DNA from: Dehalococcoidia bacterium
Lineage (GTDB): Bacteria > Chloroflexota > Dehalococcoidia > DSTF01 > JACRBR01
NCBI GenBank assembly: GCA_040902535.1
Contig: JBBDXD010000001.1
Location: 145,161 to 209,160 of the forward strand
Length of the DNA stretch: 64,000 nucleotides
Reading direction: 5' to 3'
In this document: piece after piece, positions 4,123 through 27,420 of the stretch
How positions within the stretch are numbered: position 1 is the first letter of the stretch
Layout of the letters: the number at the start of each line of letters is the position of its first letter
Program-made: the position numbers and the translations under genes
The notes under the pieces: model-generated
Told to the model about the DNA's origin: nothing
Seen by the model: only the letters and a program-made list of their open reading frames with translations
Databases searched by the model: none

Positions 4123-4629
4123 GTGAGTCGCCGTCGCCCCCGCCTACCGGAATTCGATTATCTCGGGCATCAGGCCTATCACGTCACGGTCGTGACGCAT
4201 CGACGCATGCCAATCCTCAGCGAGAACCTCGCCGAATCCGTATGCACCCGCATCGTCCAGAGCGCCGCAGCGACCAATTTCGATCCATTGGCGTATTGCG
4301 TAATGCCCGATCACTGCCACCTGCTCCTGCAGGGGTGCGCCGACGACTCGAGCCTGCTGAAGTTCATGAAGCTGTTCAAGCAGACAACGAGCTTCATCGC
4401 TCAACGCGACTTTGGTCATCACCTCTGGCAGCAGAGCTTTCACGATCGCGTCCTTCGCAAGGACGACGACGCTCTTCATGTCGCCCGCTATATCATCGAG
4501 AATCCCGTAGCCGCAGGTCTAACGTCCGACTCCAGCACGTGGCCACATACCGGAGGAACGATTGTGGCTCAGTCTCAACGCATCGAGTGGGACGGACCTG
4601 AAGGTTCGTCCCTACTTTTCGAGCCGTGA
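4123..4629 (+). CDS. REP-associated tyrosine transposase (IS200/IS605-like Y1 HUH transposase)
   Basis: RRRPRLPEFDYLGHQAYHVTVVTHRRMPILSE matches the N-terminus of IS200-family TnpA/RAYT. It has the HUH-type motif CVMPDHCHLLLQG and the tyrosine motif ARYIIENPVAAGL. The ORF track starts at 4003, but that frame reads through REP copy 1; GTG at 4123 is the more plausible start. The C-terminus overlaps REP copy 2. Confidence 0.75.
   Translation: MSRRRPRLPEFDYLGHQAYHVTVVTHRRMPILSENLAESVCTRIVQSAAATNFDPLAYCVMPDHCHLLLQGCADDSSLLKFMKLFKQTTSFIAQRDFGHHLWQQSFHDRVLRKDDDALHVARYIIENPVAAGLTSDSSTWPHTGGTIVAQSQRIEWDGPEGSSLLFEP
4589..4616 (-). repeat. REP-like palindromic element, copy 2 (inverted orientation)
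   Basis: GGGACGGACCTGAAGGTTCGTCCCTACT is the exact reverse complement of the 28-mer at 4063-4090. Confidence 0.65.
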
Positions 4630-5417
4630 TGCGGCCTCGGGCTCAGATCACCACCGCCGCCACCACCCTCACCAACGCCACCCACATGATCGCGCTCACG
4701 GGCGCTGGCATGAGCGTCGAGAGCGGCATCCCGCCGTTCCGCGGCGCAGGCGGGCTCTGGACGAAGCACGGCGAGCCACCGATGGACGGCTATCAGCGCT
4801 TCATGGCCGACCCGGCGGCCCACTGGCGGAACATGCTCGCACGCCGCGATAGCGACGACGAGTTCACGCGCGCCCTCAACGCTGCGAAGCCCAACGCCGG
4901 GCACCTGGCGATGGCCGAACTCGAACGCATGGGCGTCCTCAAGCACACGATCTGCCAGAACATCGATAACCTGCACTTCGAAGCCGGCAGCATGTCCGTC
5001 ACCGAGATCCACGGCAACCGCACGAAGCTGCGTTGCGTAGAGTGCACCGCGCGGTGGCCGTGGGCCGAGTTCACGATGACGGACATCCCGCCCGCGTGCC
5101 CGCACTGTGGCGGAATGGTGAAGTCCGACACGGTCATGTTCGGCGAACCGATCCCGCGCCAATTTCTCGCTGAGTGCCAGGCGCAGGCCGAGCGCGCTGA
5201 CTGCATCATGATCGTTGGCACGTCCGCGAGCGTCACGCCCGCCGCGTGGTTCCCGGAGATCGTCCTCGAACGCGGCGGCACGCTGATCGAGATCAACACG
5301 GAGCCGACGCCGTTCTCGTCCCATTGCGCGGCGTCGATACGGGCGCCCTCGGGCGAAGCCTTGCCGCTGATCGTCGACGAGATTCACCGGATGCAACGGC
5401 TGGAACCTGGAGACTAG
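4629..5417 (+). CDS. cobB: NAD-dependent protein deacylase (Sir2/CobB family sirtuin)
   Basis: IALTGAGMSVESGIPPFRGAGGLW is the sirtuin NAD-binding motif, followed by a CxxC...CxxC zinc ribbon (CVECTARW...CPHCGG) and GTSASVTPAAWFP. The start is uncertain (GTG 4626, ATG 4629, or the internal Met before IALTG). Confidence 0.85.
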   Translation: MRPRAQITTAATTLTNATHMIALTGAGMSVESGIPPFRGAGGLWTKHGEPPMDGYQRFMADPAAHWRNMLARRDSDDEFTRALNAAKPNAGHLAMAELERMGVLKHTICQNIDNLHFEAGSMSVTEIHGNRTKLRCVECTARWPWAEFTMTDIPPACPHCGGMVKSDTVMFGEPIPRQFLAECQAQAERADCIMIVGTSASVTPAAWFPEIVLERGGTLIEINTEPTPFSSHCAASIRAPSGEALPLIVDEIHRMQRLEPGD

Positions 5418-5473
5418 AAGTTGGAGCGCCGCGCCGTCTGTCGGCAGGCGCGGCGGCCGTGTAATCTCTGCCC

Positions 5474-6871
5474 ATGATCGCAGACCAATTGGCCCTCGCG
5501 TCGATCGAGACCGTCGCAGAGAAGATCGCCGCGAAGGAAATCAGCCCGGTCGAGCTGACGCAGGCGATGCTCGAACGCATCGAGCGGCTGAACCCTCAGC
5601 TCAACGCGTACATGACGGTCACCGCCGACATCGCGCTCGAACAAGCACGCGCCGCGGAACGCGAGATCGTCGCCGGCAATCATCGCGGCCTGCTGCACGG
5701 CGTGCCCATCGCGCACAAGGACCTCTACGCGACGAAAGGCGTGCGCACCACCGCCGGCTCGAAGATCCTGACCGACTGGATCCCCGACCATGAGGCCACT
5801 GTCGTGACAAAGCTGCGCGACGCCGGCGCGGTGATGCTCGGCAAGCTTGGCATGCACGAGTGGGCGTTCGGCACGACGTCCGCCAACGTGCACTTTGGCT
5901 ACGTGTGCAATCCCTGGAGGGTTGACTGCGTGCCGGGAGGCTCGTCCGGCGGCTCAGGAGCGGCGGTCGCCGCCGGTCTTGCGTTCGCGGCGCTCGGCAG
6001 CGACACCGGCGGCAGCATCCGCATTCCGGCGTCCTTCTGCGGCGTCGTCGGCCTCATGCCGACGTACGGACGCGCGAGCCTGCATGGCGCCGTCCCTCTC
6101 TCACGGTCGCTCGACCATCCCGGCCCGCTTACGCGCACGGTCCGCGATGCGGCCATCGTCACGCAGGCGATCAGCGGCCACGACCCGCTTGACCCTGCCA
6201 CCGAGTTGCGCCCGGTCGACGACATGCTCGCGGACGCCGAGCAAGGACCAGAGGGCTTGCGCATCGGCGTGCCGAAGCAACTGTTCTGGGACAATCTGGA
6301 GCCCGAAGTCGAGCGCCTCGTGCGCAAAGCCATCGCCGACCTGGCCGCTGCCGGCGCTGACGTCCAGGAGGTCGATTGGCCCGAGGCATCCGTGTACTCA
6401 TCCGCGGTCGGGCCGATCATCCTCGCGGAGGCGGCGGCCTACCACGCGCAGTACCTGCCAGCGCGACGCGCCGAGTACAGCGATGTTGTCGGCGGCATGC
6501 TCGAAGCCGGCGCCCAGATTAAGGCGACGCAATACATCGACGCGATGCGCATCATGGAACGCGCACGCAGCGGCGAAGCCGACCGCGCGCTCGATGACGT
6601 CGACGTGCTGATGACGCCGCAGGTGCAGCAGGTCGCACCGAAAATGGCGGACGTCCTCACAGACCGCGACGTGGTCCGGCGCACCGCGCTCACGAGCCTC
6701 ATCGACCTCACCGGCCAGCCGGCCATGTCGGTGCCATGCGGCGTTTCCAGCCAGGCCATGCCCGTCGGACTGCAGATCATCGGCCGCCGCTGGGATGAAG
6801 CCGCGGTCGTACGCGCCGGCCGCGCGTACGAGATGGTGCGCGGCCCCTTCCCCGCCCCGCCGATCTCCTGA
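5474..6871 (+). CDS. amidase-signature family amidase (GatA-like)
   Basis: Carries the amidase signature GGSSGGSGAAVAAGLAFAALGSDTGGSIRIPASFCGVVGLMPTYGR and the Ser-cisSer-Lys context (HGVPIAHKDLYATKG). Confidence 0.85.
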   Translation: MIADQLALASIETVAEKIAAKEISPVELTQAMLERIERLNPQLNAYMTVTADIALEQARAAEREIVAGNHRGLLHGVPIAHKDLYATKGVRTTAGSKILTDWIPDHEATVVTKLRDAGAVMLGKLGMHEWAFGTTSANVHFGYVCNPWRVDCVPGGSSGGSGAAVAAGLAFAALGSDTGGSIRIPASFCGVVGLMPTYGRASLHGAVPLSRSLDHPGPLTRTVRDAAIVTQAISGHDPLDPATELRPVDDMLADAEQGPEGLRIGVPKQLFWDNLEPEVERLVRKAIADLAAAGADVQEVDWPEASVYSSAVGPIILAEAAAYHAQYLPARRAEYSDVVGGMLEAGAQIKATQYIDAMRIMERARSGEADRALDDVDVLMTPQVQQVAPKMADVLTDRDVVRRTALTSLIDLTGQPAMSVPCGVSSQAMPVGLQIIGRRWDEAAVVRAGRAYEMVRGPFPAPPIS

Positions 6872-22510: not shown

Positions 22511-24346
22511 ATGTGCGGGATCATCGGATATACCGGCGAACGGGACGCCGCGCCGCTGCTGCTCGATGGGCTGCAACGCCTCGAGTACCGCGGCTACGAT
22601 AGCGCGGGCATCGCCCTGCTTGACGGCGGTGAGATCCACGTCGCAAAGGGCGCCGGCAAGCTTTCGACGCTCCGTGCCGCCCTCGAGGGCGCGTATCCCG
22701 CCGGCGCCGCCGGCATCGGTCACACCCGCTGGGCGACGCACGGAAAGCCGACGACGGACAACGCGCACCCCCACCTCGATTGCGCCGGAGACGTCGTCGT
22801 CATTCACAACGGCATCGTCGAAAATTACCTCGCGCTGCGCAACGAACTGAGCGCGCATCATCTGCGCTCGGAGACTGACACGGAAGTGTTGCCGCACCTC
22901 ATCGAACGCTATCTCGACGAAGGAGACGATCTCCTAACGGCGCTACGGCGCACCATCGCGCGCATCGATGGCGCGCACGCGATCGTCGTCATGTCGCGGC
23001 GCGAGCCGGGCACACTGTTCGCGGCCCGCTGTGGCAACGCGGGTGGCGTGGTCGTGGGTTACGGCGAGGGTGAGATGTTCGTCTCCAGCGACCTCACCGC
23101 GCTTTTGCCCGAAACCCAGCGCGTCGCATTTCTGTCAGACGGAGAGATCGCGTGCGTCGCGGCTTCCGGCGTACGGTACGTCTCGTTCGACGGCGCGCCG
23201 ATCGAGAAGCAGCCGCAAGTCGTGCCGTTTGACGCCGTCTCGGCCGCAAAGGGCGCATTCAAGCACTTCATGCTCAAGGAGATCATGGAGCAGCCGCAGT
23301 GCATCATGGATACGCTTCGCGGGCGCGCCATCTTTGATCCGCCGGGCGTCGACCTCGAAGACGTGGCCATCAGCGACGACGTGCTGCGCTCGGTCGAGCG
23401 CGTGATGCTCATCGGCATGGGCACGAGCATGCACGCGGCGATGGTCGGCCGCACGTACTTCGAGCGGATCGCCTGCATCCCGTCGGAAGTCGACAACTCC
23501 TCGGAGTTCCGCTATCGCGACGCGCTCGTCGACGGGCGCACGCTCGTCGTGTCAGTCGCGCAGTCCGGTGAGACGGTGGACACGCTGGAGGCGATGTCCG
23601 ACGCCGGCCGTCATGGCGCTCCTCAGCTTACGGTCTGCAATACTCCGGGCGCCCAGACGACACGCGTCGCCGACGGCTTCGTCCTGACGCGCTGCGGCCC
23701 CGAAGTTGCCGTCGCCAGCACCAAGACGCTCGTGGCGTCCATCACCGCGCTCTACCTGCTGGCGATTCGCGTCGGCATGGCCCGTGGCGCGCTCGATGCC
23801 GAACGCGCCGGCGAGCTGATCAACGACCTGGCGACGATCCCGAACCTCGTCGGTGACGTCCTCAAGCTGGACCCCGAGATCGAGAAGATCGCGCACCGGC
23901 TGTTCCGCCACGATGACTTCCTGTTCCTCGCCCGCGGACTCCAGTACCCGATGGCGATGGAGGGCGCGCTGAAGCTCAAGGAAGTCAGCTACATCCACGC
24001 CGAGGGCTATCCGGCAGGGGAGATGAAGCATGGCCCGATCGCGCTCATCGACCGCAACATGCCCATCGTCGCGATTGCTGTTGATGATGGCACGCGCGAG
24101 AAGATGCTCTCGAATATCGAGCAGGTGCGCGCCCGCGACGGCATCGTCGTCGGCATCGTCAGCAAAGGTGATACCGAAATTGCCTCGAAGTGCGAATACG
24201 CGCTCGAGATGCCGCGCACGACGCCGCTGCTCTACCCGCTGCTCACCGCCATCCCGATGCAGTTGCTGTCGTACCACATCGCCCTGCGTCGCGGCTGCGA
24301 CGTCGACCAGCCACGCAACCTGGCGAAAACAGTGACGGTGGAGTGA
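22511..24346 (+). CDS. glmS: glutamine--fructose-6-phosphate aminotransferase
   Basis: MCGIIGYTG (Ntn Cys1), RLEYRGYDSAGIAL, two SIS domains and a C-terminal ...CDVDQPRNLAKTVTVE. Confidence 0.95.
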   Translation: MCGIIGYTGERDAAPLLLDGLQRLEYRGYDSAGIALLDGGEIHVAKGAGKLSTLRAALEGAYPAGAAGIGHTRWATHGKPTTDNAHPHLDCAGDVVVIHNGIVENYLALRNELSAHHLRSETDTEVLPHLIERYLDEGDDLLTALRRTIARIDGAHAIVVMSRREPGTLFAARCGNAGGVVVGYGEGEMFVSSDLTALLPETQRVAFLSDGEIACVAASGVRYVSFDGAPIEKQPQVVPFDAVSAAKGAFKHFMLKEIMEQPQCIMDTLRGRAIFDPPGVDLEDVAISDDVLRSVERVMLIGMGTSMHAAMVGRTYFERIACIPSEVDNSSEFRYRDALVDGRTLVVSVAQSGETVDTLEAMSDAGRHGAPQLTVCNTPGAQTTRVADGFVLTRCGPEVAVASTKTLVASITALYLLAIRVGMARGALDAERAGELINDLATIPNLVGDVLKLDPEIEKIAHRLFRHDDFLFLARGLQYPMAMEGALKLKEVSYIHAEGYPAGEMKHGPIALIDRNMPIVAIAVDDGTREKMLSNIEQVRARDGIVVGIVSKGDTEIASKCEYALEMPRTTPLLYPLLTAIPMQLLSYHIALRRGCDVDQPRNLAKTVTVE

Positions 24347-24403
24347 GCGCTGACCAGCGGCGCTGGGGCAACATATCGCATAGCGGCGTCCGCCCTGCCG
24401 GCG

Positions 24404-24451
24404 TTGACCACATCCGGCGTCTGAGTTAGTGTAAGAGTGACACTAACTCAG
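24404..24451 (+). promoter_or_regulatory. promoter-like TTGACC-17-TAGTGT overlapping an AT-rich 12-bp perfect inverted repeat (candidate NAD-regulon operator) upstream of nadB
   Basis: CTGAGTTAGTGT-aagagtg-ACACTAACTCAG (24421-24451) is a perfect 12-bp inverted repeat. It lies about 20 nt upstream of the nadB ATG (24470) and overlaps the -10-like hexamer. Confidence 0.4.
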
Positions 24452-24469
24452 GCGCATTCGGGGTCATCC

Positions 24470-26005
24470 ATGCTGCAGCGGTTCGATTACATCGTCGTCG
24501 GGTCAGGGATCGCGGGACTCTATGCCGCCCTGCTCGCGCGGCAGCACGGCAGCGTCTGCGTGCTCACCAAGGGCAGCATCGACGAGTGCAATACGAAGTA
24601 CGCGCAGGGTGGCATCGCCGCCGCCGTCGGCACCGACGACAACGCCGGCCTTCACCTGCGCGACACCATCGAAGCCGGTGCCGGACTGGTGGACGAAGAG
24701 GCGGCGCGCATCCTCGTCGAAGCCGCCGCAGACCGCATCAGCGACCTCGTGACCTTCGGCGTCCCCTTCGACAGCACCGACGGCGAAGTCGCACTCGGCC
24801 GCGAAGCGGCGCATAGCCGCCGCCGCATCCTGCACGCAGGCGGCGACTCCACCGGCGCCCACATCGAGATCTCGCTCAGCGGCCTCGCGAAGATGTCGCA
24901 CATCACGATCAAGGAGTACGTCCAGGTCGAAGAGATCGTCGTCGAGAACGGCCGCGCGAGCGGTGTGCTCGCACTCGACACGCGGACGAACGCCAACGAG
25001 CGCTTCGATGCCGGCGCGATCGTTCTTGCGACGGGCGGTATCGGCCAGTTATTCCGCGTCAGCACCAACCCGGAGATCGCCACGGGTGACGGCGTCGCGC
25101 TCGCCTATCGCGCCGGCGCCGAGGTGCAGGACATGGAGTTCATCCAGTTCCACCCCACCGCGCTGCGCCTGCCAGGCGTGCCCATCTTCCTCATCACAGA
25201 GGCGGTGCGTGGCGAGGGTGGCGTGCTCGCGAACGCCGTCGGCGAGCGATTTATGCCGCGCTATCACGCAGACGCTGAACTCGCTCCTCGCGACGTCGTC
25301 GCGCGAGCGATCGTGAGCGAAATGACGCACACGGCATCGGATCGCGTGTACCTCGACATCACGCACCTGCCGGCGGAACGGATTACGGCGCGTTTTCCCC
25401 AGATCTACAAGTACTGTCTCGACCACGGCCTGGACATGACCCGGGAGCCGATCCCGGTGTCGCCGGCCGCGCACTACATCATGGGCGGCGTCCGCACGAA
25501 CACCTGGGGCGAAACGACGCTCCCGGGCCTCTACGCCTGCGGCGAGGTCGCCTGCACCGGCGTGCACGGCGCCAACCGTCTCGCCAGCAACTCGCTCCTC
25601 GAAACCGTCGTCTTTGCCAAGCGCATCGTGCAGCGCACGCTCGATACAACCGGCGCTGCCGCTGAGCTGACCGCCGACGCGCGCGAGTTGCCCCGCTTCG
25701 CGAACGAAAGCGGGTCGCATCCGGATCGCCCATCACTGCAGGCACTGATGTGGGACAACGTAGGGATCGTGCGCGACGGCGAAGGATTGCGTCACGCGAC
25801 ACGACAGCTTGCGGCGTGGCGCGCGGCGCTTCCGCAGCCCCTCGATCGCCTGTCGCACGAGCTGGCAAACATGCTGCTCGCCGGGCGGCTCATGGCCGAA
25901 GCCTCCCTGCTGCGCGAAGAGAGCCGCGGCGCCCACTGCCGCACGGACTACCCCGAGCCCGTCGATGCATGGCGCCGCCACATCGCCTTCCGGCGCAGGA
26001 TCTGA
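24470..26005 (+). CDS. nadB: L-aspartate oxidase
   Basis: FDYIVVGSGIAGLYAAL (FAD GxGxxG), YAQGGIAAA, RSLGTT-like succinate-dehydrogenase-flavoprotein fold and a C-terminal EESRGAHCRTDYPE. The track ORF starts at an in-frame GTG (24437) inside the palindrome; ATG 24470 is preferred. Confidence 0.92.
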   Translation: MLQRFDYIVVGSGIAGLYAALLARQHGSVCVLTKGSIDECNTKYAQGGIAAAVGTDDNAGLHLRDTIEAGAGLVDEEAARILVEAAADRISDLVTFGVPFDSTDGEVALGREAAHSRRRILHAGGDSTGAHIEISLSGLAKMSHITIKEYVQVEEIVVENGRASGVLALDTRTNANERFDAGAIVLATGGIGQLFRVSTNPEIATGDGVALAYRAGAEVQDMEFIQFHPTALRLPGVPIFLITEAVRGEGGVLANAVGERFMPRYHADAELAPRDVVARAIVSEMTHTASDRVYLDITHLPAERITARFPQIYKYCLDHGLDMTREPIPVSPAAHYIMGGVRTNTWGETTLPGLYACGEVACTGVHGANRLASNSLLETVVFAKRIVQRTLDTTGAAAELTADARELPRFANESGSHPDRPSLQALMWDNVGIVRDGEGLRHATRQLAAWRAALPQPLDRLSHELANMLLAGRLMAEASLLREESRGAHCRTDYPEPVDAWRRHIAFRRRI

Positions 26006-26008
26006 CGG

Positions 26009-26878
26009 ATGATCCAGGGAGCACCGCTGCCGCCGCACGTCATCGATGAAGCCGTCCTCGCCGCGCTCGAAGAGGATGCCGCGCACAACGACGTCACGAC
26101 CGCCGCGGTCCTTGCGCCCGGCCAGTGGGGGCGAGGCGCGTTCATCGCCAAGACCGCGGGCGTGATCGCCGGCCTGCCCGTCGCGGCCGCTGCCATGACC
26201 GCGCTCGACGAGGATGTCTCCTTCGACACGCTCGTCGCAGAAGGCCACCAGGTGATTGCCGGGACGACTATCGCCGAGGTTGAAGGCCAGCTTGCGGCGA
26301 TCCTGGCGTGCGAGCGCGTCGCCTTGAACTTTCTGCAGCGGCTTTCGGGCATCGCCACGCTGACACGCGACTTCGTCGATGCCGTGCAAGACACGAACGC
26401 TGTGATTCTCGACACCCGCAAGACGACGCCCGGGTTGCGCGTGCTCGAACGCTACGCCGTGCGCGCCGGCGGGGGCCGCAACCACCGCTTCGCGCTCGCC
26501 GACGGCATCCTGATCAAGGACAACCACATCGAAGCGTCGAAGCAGGACGGCACCCCGCACCTCGGCGACATCGTGCGGCAAGTCCGCAAGTCGGCGCCCC
26601 ACACCCTGCGCATCGAGATCGAATGCACCGACGACGAGCAGGTCGCACAGGCTTTGGAGGGCGGCGCAGACGTCATCCTGCTCGACAACATGGACGTCGA
26701 AGCGATCCGTGCCGCCCTCCGCGTTATCGACGGCCGCGCGCAGGTCGAGGCATCGGGCGGTATCACCCTCGCGAACGTCGCGGAGATCGCGCGCACGGGT
26801 GTCGACTTTATCTCGATCGGACGCCTCACGCACTCCGCACCCGCACTCGACATCAGCCTCGATATCTCGACGGTCTGA
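26009..26878 (+). CDS. nadC: nicotinate-nucleotide pyrophosphorylase (carboxylating)
   Basis: QPRTase fold ...DTRKTTPGLRVLERYAVRAGGGRNHRFALADGILIKDNHI...LLDNM... Immediately follows nadB. Confidence 0.9.
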   Translation: MIQGAPLPPHVIDEAVLAALEEDAAHNDVTTAAVLAPGQWGRGAFIAKTAGVIAGLPVAAAAMTALDEDVSFDTLVAEGHQVIAGTTIAEVEGQLAAILACERVALNFLQRLSGIATLTRDFVDAVQDTNAVILDTRKTTPGLRVLERYAVRAGGGRNHRFALADGILIKDNHIEASKQDGTPHLGDIVRQVRKSAPHTLRIEIECTDDEQVAQALEGGADVILLDNMDVEAIRAALRVIDGRAQVEASGGITLANVAEIARTGVDFISIGRLTHSAPALDISLDISTV

Positions 26879-27420
26879 TGGCACAGATTGTGATTGTGTC
26901 CGGCCCGCCGGCCAGCGGCAAGAGCACCGTCTGCGAAGCACTGTGCGAGCGCTATGACCGCACCGTACATCTGGAGACCGACGACGCCTACGGTTGGATC
27001 CGCATGGGCTTTGTGCGGCCATGGCACACGGATTCATCGCGCCAGAATATGATGGTGAGCCGGGCAGCGGCGCGAGCGGCCACTGCATTCGCCCAGGAGG
27101 GCTATGCCGTCTTCATCGACGGCGTGATCGGGCCCGCTCACCTCCCCGTGTATTTGGAAGAACTGGAGAAGGCGGGCGTCCCCGTCCATTTCGCCCTGCT
27201 GCTGCCCGCGCTCGATGTGGCAGTGCGGCGAGCCGCCCAGCGCGAAAAGCGCATCACAGGCGCAGAGGAGATGTTCCGGCGTGTCTACCCGATGTTCAGC
27301 GACGCGCCGAACTTCGCGGGTTGCACGATCGATACCAGCGACATGACGCCGATGCAAACGGCCGACCGCGTGATGGACGCATGCGGCGCCGGTTCGTGCC
27401 TGGTGCTGCCGAAGCCCTAG
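26878..27420 (+). CDS. P-loop NTPase/kinase-like protein (AAA_33/zeta-toxin-like small kinase fold)
   Basis: MAQIVIVSGPPASGKSTVCEAL Walker A at the N-terminus. The ATG overlaps the nadC stop (TGATG). Only the last 180 codons of the 370-aa track ORF are the real gene. Confidence 0.6.
   Translation: MAQIVIVSGPPASGKSTVCEALCERYDRTVHLETDDAYGWIRMGFVRPWHTDSSRQNMMVSRAAARAATAFAQEGYAVFIDGVIGPAHLPVYLEELEKAGVPVHFALLLPALDVAVRRAAQREKRITGAEEMFRRVYPMFSDAPNFAGCTIDTSDMTPMQTADRVMDACGAGSCLVLPKP

Follow-up and report, generated by a model that had tools for sequence, protein, structure and literature searches.

A conserved 21-bp box within the nadB palindrome

What is the role of a long, AT-rich palindrome that lies immediately upstream of nadB, the gene for L-aspartate oxidase, in an uncultured, GC-rich member of the Dehalococcoidia? 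The palindrome, CTGAGTTAGTGT-aagagtg-ACACTAACTCAG (24421-24451), is located in a stretch of 64,000 nucleotides (nt) from contig JBBDXD010000001.1 of a Dehalococcoidia bacterium, which we refer to, at its full length, as the window; an original prediction made from the letters of the window had proposed that it is a repressor site of the nicotinamide adenine dinucleotide (NAD) regulon lying over the -10 region of the nadB promoter. We find that a box of 21 bp within the palindrome (24426-24446) is conserved in relatives and statistically linked to nrtR genes, and it is very probably, judging from these patterns, the operator of an NrtR-family repressor, that is, a protein that combines a Nudix-like effector domain with an NrtR winged-helix domain.

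Reading the sequence confirmed the claimed perfect inverted repeat (12/12 positions, with a spacer of 7 nt), which can be extended to 24417-24455, where 15 of 16 positions are complementary. The GC content of the palindrome (41.9%) agrees with the value of about 42% given originally, whereas the figure of about 69% quoted for the genome compares with 66.0% measured across the window. The 64 kb contain no other perfect inverted repeat of 12 nt with a short loop, and 0.25 repeats of this kind (loop of 3-10 nt) are expected in a random window of the same first-order composition; taken alone, the 12-nt palindrome is only mildly improbable. Its significance comes from its conservation in relatives and not from the length of the repeat. 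As originally stated, 18 nt separate the end of the palindrome from the nadB ATG at 24470; for the 21-bp box, the distance is 23 nt. The two elements are:

24426 to 24446, no strand assigned: predicted NrtR box of 21 bp, TTAGTGT-AAGAGTG-ACACTAA, with a GT-N7-AC core; assigned from conservation, position weight matrix (PWM) score, and association with nrtR and NAD genes
24421 to 24451, no strand assigned: extended perfect palindrome with 12-nt arms; the outermost 5 bp of either arm are particular to this genome and lie outside the conserved element

We compared the window with six additional nadB loci of Dehalococcoidia, in which NadB is 71-83% identical to that of the window and the neighbouring genes are partly different. 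A perfect TTAGTGT-N7-ACACTAA is present just upstream of nadB in 7/7 independent Dehalococcoidia loci, the window included, and the intergenic sequence outside the box cannot be aligned across the seven. We aligned 27 nadB and nadA sites of Dehalococcoidia-type genomes. The two 7-base arms show practically no variation, an A is found in almost every site at position 8, and positions 9-13 of the spacer are free; at position 14 there is a T or, within the clade of the window, a G. The resulting consensus is (A/G)TTAGTGTA-N5-(T/G)ACACTAA(T/C). Beyond one flanking base, pairing falls to chance level, and the outer pairs of the palindrome are unpaired in 55-63% of the related sites. The outer CTGAG/CTCAG pairing being peculiar to this genome, we rejected a functional role for the full 12-bp arms, which had been part of the proposed operator; because the outer 5 bp are not conserved, the 12-bp arms are a local accident, and the element is the inner 21-bp box. 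With a PWM derived from the related sites, the box scores 32.9 bits, compared to at most 7.7 bits in shuffled windows, and the same scan detects no second box in the 64-kb window.

The original prediction also expected further copies of the motif upstream of nadA, a gene that it reported as absent from the window. Both statements held, the former in relatives: Pfam scans of all major open reading frames (ORFs) detected no other NAD gene in the 64 kb and no regulator of NAD metabolism, and in four Dehalococcoidia-type metagenome-assembled genomes (MAGs; CAYOSF01, CAYQLM01, JBAROU01 and JACZYW01), the box precedes nadB as well as nadA, the two sites being on different contigs of the same assembly. 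Two more nadA loci, reached through a NadA search, carry the box directly after a TTGAC-17-TA...T promoter, abutting the -10 element. In these related genomes, then, the same box would be predicted to control nadA, and the regulon would cover the whole de novo NAD pathway. Three nadA promoters (L133, L236 and L144) have two operators, with a weaker second box (e.g., TTAGTGTTCGATTGACACTTA) over the -35 element TTGACA, about 24 nt 5' of the main box.

Some of the related nadB loci differ in their surroundings. In L004 (7981-8003) and L216 (1374-1396), the nadB start codon begins inside the final bases of the box (ACACTAATG...), and the leader of the nadB mRNA would be very short or absent, without a Shine-Dalgarno sequence. 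In three others (L001 6471-7883, L002 6417-7871 and L003 6515-7924, all on the minus strand), a gene of about 470-484 codons with a faint TPR match lies between glmS and nadB and is divergent from nadB, so that the box occupies the divergent intergenic region; this gene is missing from the window and from L007.

Overlap of the box with the predicted nadB promoter

Two promoter-like elements precede or overlap the box:

24404 to 24409, + strand: -35-like hexamer TTGACC; TTGAC or TTGAA is kept 17-18 nt from TAGTGT in L001, L002, L003 and L007
24427 to 24432, + strand: putative -10-like hexamer TAGTGT, part of the left arm of the box, assigned by conserved spacing

The spacer between the two is 17 nt in the window, and the promoter assignment is made because TTGAC and the spacing are conserved in relatives. 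Other clades have a separate -10 element (TAGGAT, TAGCAT, TAGAGT or TATAGT), the end of which coincides with the first base of the box. The box thus covers the -10/+1 region in both registers, with the -10 hexamer inside the left arm in the clade of the window, and this position, together with the conservation at all seven nadB loci, supports the proposed repressor site over the -10 region. The start of transcription is predicted at about 24439-24441, which would leave the left arm outside the transcript.

The position of the box over the -10/+1 region implies repression by promoter occlusion, and characterised NrtR proteins are repressors (PMC4666351). In the mechanism that we propose, a dimer of NrtR, the gene for which would lie elsewhere in the genome, would bind the half-sites TTAGTGT and ACACTAA and bar RNA polymerase from the TTGACC-17-TAGTGT promoter. 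This would shut down the nadB-nadC-kinase operon, whose products carry out steps one and three of the de novo route to NAD. Judging from the NrtRs characterised elsewhere, a metabolite derived from NAD would alter DNA binding and so tune expression to NAD status: ADP-ribose abolishes DNA binding by the NrtR proteins of Synechocystis and Shewanella (PMC2330246), and NAD is the effector of Corynebacterium NdnR (PMC4666351). For the genome studied here, it is inferred that nrtR is present and that its product binds the box, and so are the effector and the direction of regulation.

The palindrome might instead act in RNA, as a hairpin in the 5' untranslated region, an attenuator, a riboswitch-like element or a terminator of glmS; the original prediction had named an attenuator or terminator as a possible refutation. 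The region indeed folds at -39.2 kcal/mol (z = -5.5), and glmS, on the same strand, ends only 75 nt upstream. However, a permissive Rfam scan of 23800-25000 returned only noise (the best match, to a plant microRNA model, scored 19.5 bits compared to a gathering threshold of 98), no terminator-like site was detected in 24200-24600, where the AT-rich stem is followed by GCGCATTCGGGG with no U-tract, and the conserved -35 and -10 elements put the predicted start near the right arm, with the left arm untranscribed. The box is also conserved in L001-L003, where the gene upstream points the other way and read-through does not arise. Moreover, no variation occurs in the seven inner pairs, most of the outer positions are unpaired in relatives, covariation is no better than in shuffles (69/500), and the same box also precedes nrtR and many unrelated NAD genes. 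We therefore regard a role in RNA as extremely unlikely.

Association of the box with nrtR and NAD genes

Most NrtR motifs have a 21-bp palindromic symmetry with a GT-N7-AC core, and in the Chloroflexi (Roseiflexus), NrtR controls nadC-nadA-nadB (PMC2330246). The box carries this signature (a 21-bp inverted repeat with a GT-N7-AC core), lies in the promoter region of NAD genes over core promoter elements (the promoter being predicted), is conserved at orthologous positions and present at other members of the regulon, and co-occurs with nrtR genes in lineages other than the clade of the window.

To quantify the genes associated with the box, we scanned 185,579 GTDB species genomes for RTTAGTGTA-N5-TACACTAAY, which identified at least 120 loci; the ORFs starting within 160 nt of a match were clustered, and representatives were compared to Pfam. 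Among the matches listed, the box is followed by genes for NrtR (NUDIX and NrtR_WHD, PF21906) at 16 loci, NadB at 12, NadA at 11 (and at a twelfth, L245, by inspection), PncB at 9, a QRPTase-like phosphoribosyltransferase at 6, and a PncA-type isochorismatase, NadE and an NMNAT-like cytidylyltransferase at 2 each. The pncB and nadE sites are among those that the original prediction had expected from such a search. An NrtR homologue is encoded somewhere within 33 of the 120 fetched box pieces, again among the matches listed.

In the reverse test, we used 80 metagenome loci that had been picked solely by NrtR protein similarity. The box (at most 2 mismatches) was found in 24 of these (shuffles, 0.05), and 19 of the 24 boxes lie at most 250 nt upstream of nrtR. 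The recognition segment of the winged helix, D-K-R-N-F-R, is invariant in box-linked NrtRs of several phyla, in keeping with a box that is itself invariant. The statistical link to nrtR and NAD genes runs in both directions, and it is observed along with the site, its conservation and its place relative to conserved promoter elements.

These results bear on a further explanation, namely, that the palindrome is a mere promoter element or a chance repeat with no regulator. Its modest improbability in a random window (0.25 expected) and the -10-like TAGTGT within the left arm would be compatible with this. Nevertheless, the arms are essentially invariant over the 27 sites while spacer and flanks vary, the PWM score is far above that of the shuffles, the box occurs in two registers relative to the -10 element depending on the clade and so is not itself the -10, and the two-way association with nrtR is strong, which leaves very little probability for an element without a regulator.

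The search for the regulator

Several observations weigh against the assignment of the box to NrtR. A six-frame search with the NrtR hidden Markov model (HMM; E ≤ 10) yielded no match in 348 kb of sequence, comprising the window and 28 related loci of the Dehalococcoidia, and among the matches listed from the GTDB scan, none of the Dehalococcoidia-labelled box loci contains nrtR. The right half-site in the clade of the window is GACACTAA, compared to the consensus TACACTAA. Finally, a consensus sigma-70 scan calls no promoter at this position, the -10 element being weak (TAGTGT matches TATAAT at 3/6 positions); the hexamers, the spacing and the conservation of the originally proposed TTGACC-17-TAGTGT promoter stand, but its recognition as a consensus promoter does not.

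A Nudix-box regular expression applied to the window and a tblastn search of all fetched Dehalococcoidia DNA likewise detected no nrtR. L252, selected by tetranucleotide similarity as a candidate NrtR locus of the Dehalococcoidia, was rejected when the protein search gave only relatives from the Anaerolineae. As nrtR is not found in the window or the related loci, the predicted regulator is unlinked, and the original statement that no regulator is adjacent is borne out by the NrtR HMM and Pfam scans.

Given these results, the box could be an operator that is bound, in this clade, by a regulator of the NiaR type, the NadR type or an undescribed type; the failure to find nrtR in the window, in the 348 kb of related DNA or next to any listed Dehalococcoidia box speaks for this. 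On the other hand, the identical box is located directly 5' of nrtR in other Chloroflexota (Anaerolineae, Ktedonobacteria and Chloroflexia) and in many other phyla, and the motifs of the alternative regulators do not match. The operator of the helix-turn-helix (HTH)-bearing NadR is an 18-bp TGTTTA-N6-TAAACA (PMC2330246), which differs from the box in sequence and spacing, and neither NiaR motif fits the box: type I is 22 bp long and has a core resembling TGTCTTGTCA, and type II is TTTACAGCAGGTGTAAA (PMC2330245). Furthermore, no protein of the window matches the NrtR model or is annotated by Pfam as a NAD regulator. Of the three types that the original prediction had offered for the site (NiaR, NrtR or NadR), the signature and the association with nrtR single out NrtR, whereas the other two do not fit. 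Control by a different regulator is, in our estimation, highly unlikely.

The nadB-nadC-kinase operon

The genes flanking and following the predicted NrtR box are:

22511 to 24346, + strand, as nadB: glmS, the upstream flanking gene, which ends 75 nt before the palindrome
24470 to 26005, + strand: nadB (L-aspartate oxidase), first gene of the operon; Pfam FAD_binding_2 and Succ_DH_flav_C; TIGR00551, 540 compared to a cut-off of 452.75
26009 to 26878, + strand: nadC (quinolinate phosphoribosyltransferase); Pfam QRPTase_N and QRPTase_C; TIGR00078, 312 compared to a cut-off of 198.4
26878 to 27420, + strand: P-loop kinase-like gene (AAA_33/CPT, Atu3015-like) of 180 codons, last gene of the operon, followed by a convergent dtd

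The cut-offs for nadB and nadC are those of the NCBIfam equivalog models. The longest ORF of nadB starts at a GTG (24437) that falls inside the palindrome, and the original prediction had suspected this start to be wrong. That suspicion proved correct: a public protein of 511 residues, identical (100%) and annotated in a Dehalococcoidia MAG, starts at ATG 24470, and the NadB orthologues begin at the same M-x-Q-R-F-D.

The ATG of the kinase gene overlaps the nadC stop codon (TGATG) in five genomes of the clade (the window, L001, L002, L003 and L007), in agreement with the proposed co-translation, and the kinase would therefore be co-expressed with the predicted NrtR-controlled NAD operon. Homologues of the kinase (L002 10410-10952, L003 10507-11049, L007 10405-10953 and L004 11078-11590) are confined to the clade of the window and L004. 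Its best relative of solved structure is the uncharacterised Atu3015 (PDB 1zp6, E = 8 × 10−20); no NCBIfam model scores above its cut-off, no HTH domain was detected, and the match to AAA_28 is only weak. That the kinase is a new enzyme of NAD metabolism recruited to the NrtR regulon, for example, a kinase of pyridine nucleosides or of another NAD precursor, is conceivable but rather doubtful. A lesser variant of such a reading would be that the clade of the window reads the NrtR box through an unlinked, non-canonical regulator.

In L001 (9557-10972, 471 residues, on a 3.6-Mb contig), NadC appears to be fused to AAA_33, but we rejected this fusion as the artefact of a frameshift. Beyond residue 215 or so, the nadC sequence continues as an Arg-rich, out-of-frame stretch, tblastn places nadC in two separate frames, and the TGATG junction is preserved. 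Elsewhere in the window, a gene for a SIR2-family NAD-dependent deacylase (4602-5417, + strand) is followed by an amidase gene (5465-6871, + strand), with no box upstream according to the PWM scan.

Comparison with known systems

The NrtR operators described by Rodionov et al. in 2008 (PMC2330246) resemble the site studied here in the 21-bp palindrome with its GT-N7-AC core and in the location within promoters of de novo NAD genes; the regulon likewise includes nadA, nadB and nadC, and in other lineages the box also lies by nrtR, pncA, pncB and nadE. Unlike in those systems, the predicted regulator here is unlinked to its targets, the operon contains the additional P-loop kinase gene, position 14 of the box is G instead of T, and the uncultured Dehalococcoidia clade lies outside that study. 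NrtR of Mycobacterium smegmatis (MSMEG_3198, PMC6800001) is also a Nudix-related repressor of nadABC that recognises a palindrome with a 7-nt spacer. Its operator, located between nrtR and nadA/B/C, is GTTTTCGA-N7-TCGAAAAC (23 bp), which differs in sequence from the present box, and its gene is adjacent and autoregulated (PMC6800001), in contrast to the unlinked regulator here.

NiaR (YrxA) and enterobacterial NadR similarly use palindromic repressor sites over promoters of NAD biosynthesis genes but have a different taxonomic range. The NAD+ riboswitches (nadA motif and pnuC motif) are also located upstream of NAD biosynthesis genes, and a hairpin would be possible in principle in the present case as well; compared to these, the box has no Rfam match and no covariation, and transcription is predicted to start within it.

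Wider occurrence of the box and implications

The same box is found beyond NAD genes. Among the matches listed, it lies upstream of the gene for the pyruvate dehydrogenase E1-beta subunit at eight loci (L140, L156, L169, L171, L203, L224, L225 and L243), upstream of pfkA with a divergent nrtR at three (L155, L173 and L223), and upstream of gapdh at three (L177, L183 and L246). These central-carbon loci belong to Flavobacteriia, other Bacteroidota and one Pirellulaceae MAG (L183), and several have a divergent adjoining gene of the NrtR family, which suggests that a putative NrtR paralogue controls glycolysis in the loci of the Flavobacteriia/Bacteroidota type. An identical box is present in DPANN-type archaeal MAGs (L143, L164, L181 and L208, assigned to Woesearchaeota, Nanoarchaeia and one unclassified archaeon) and in bacteria of the Candidate Phyla Radiation (L136, L163, L165, L188, L202 and L214), with an NrtR homologue near most of them. 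Box and regulator together are much more uniform, and much more widely distributed, than the usual description of the NrtR family, with its 'highly variable motifs', would suggest. Some viral contigs from IMG/VR carry two or three close copies of TTAGTGT-N7-ACACTAA (L044 1633-1676, L073 2318-2361 and L058 5567-5705), which may be bound by an unrelated phage repressor or belong to a phage-borne NrtR-like system.

A full-text literature search combining NrtR with Dehalococcoid* returned nothing relevant, and the box, very probably an ordinary NrtR operator, belongs to a lineage for which such a site has apparently not been described. It leaves the known picture of the regulation of NAD synthesis unchanged and will not surprise the specialist. 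What the findings provide is a regulatory annotation of de novo NAD synthesis in uncultured, GC-rich Dehalococcoidia, with a predicted NrtR box at nadB-nadC and, in relatives, at nadA; the nadB start codon is fixed at 24470, and an uncharacterised P-loop kinase is predicted to be co-regulated with the other genes of the NAD operon. In full assemblies, the exact motif given above can serve to locate the unlinked regulator and the other members of the regulon.

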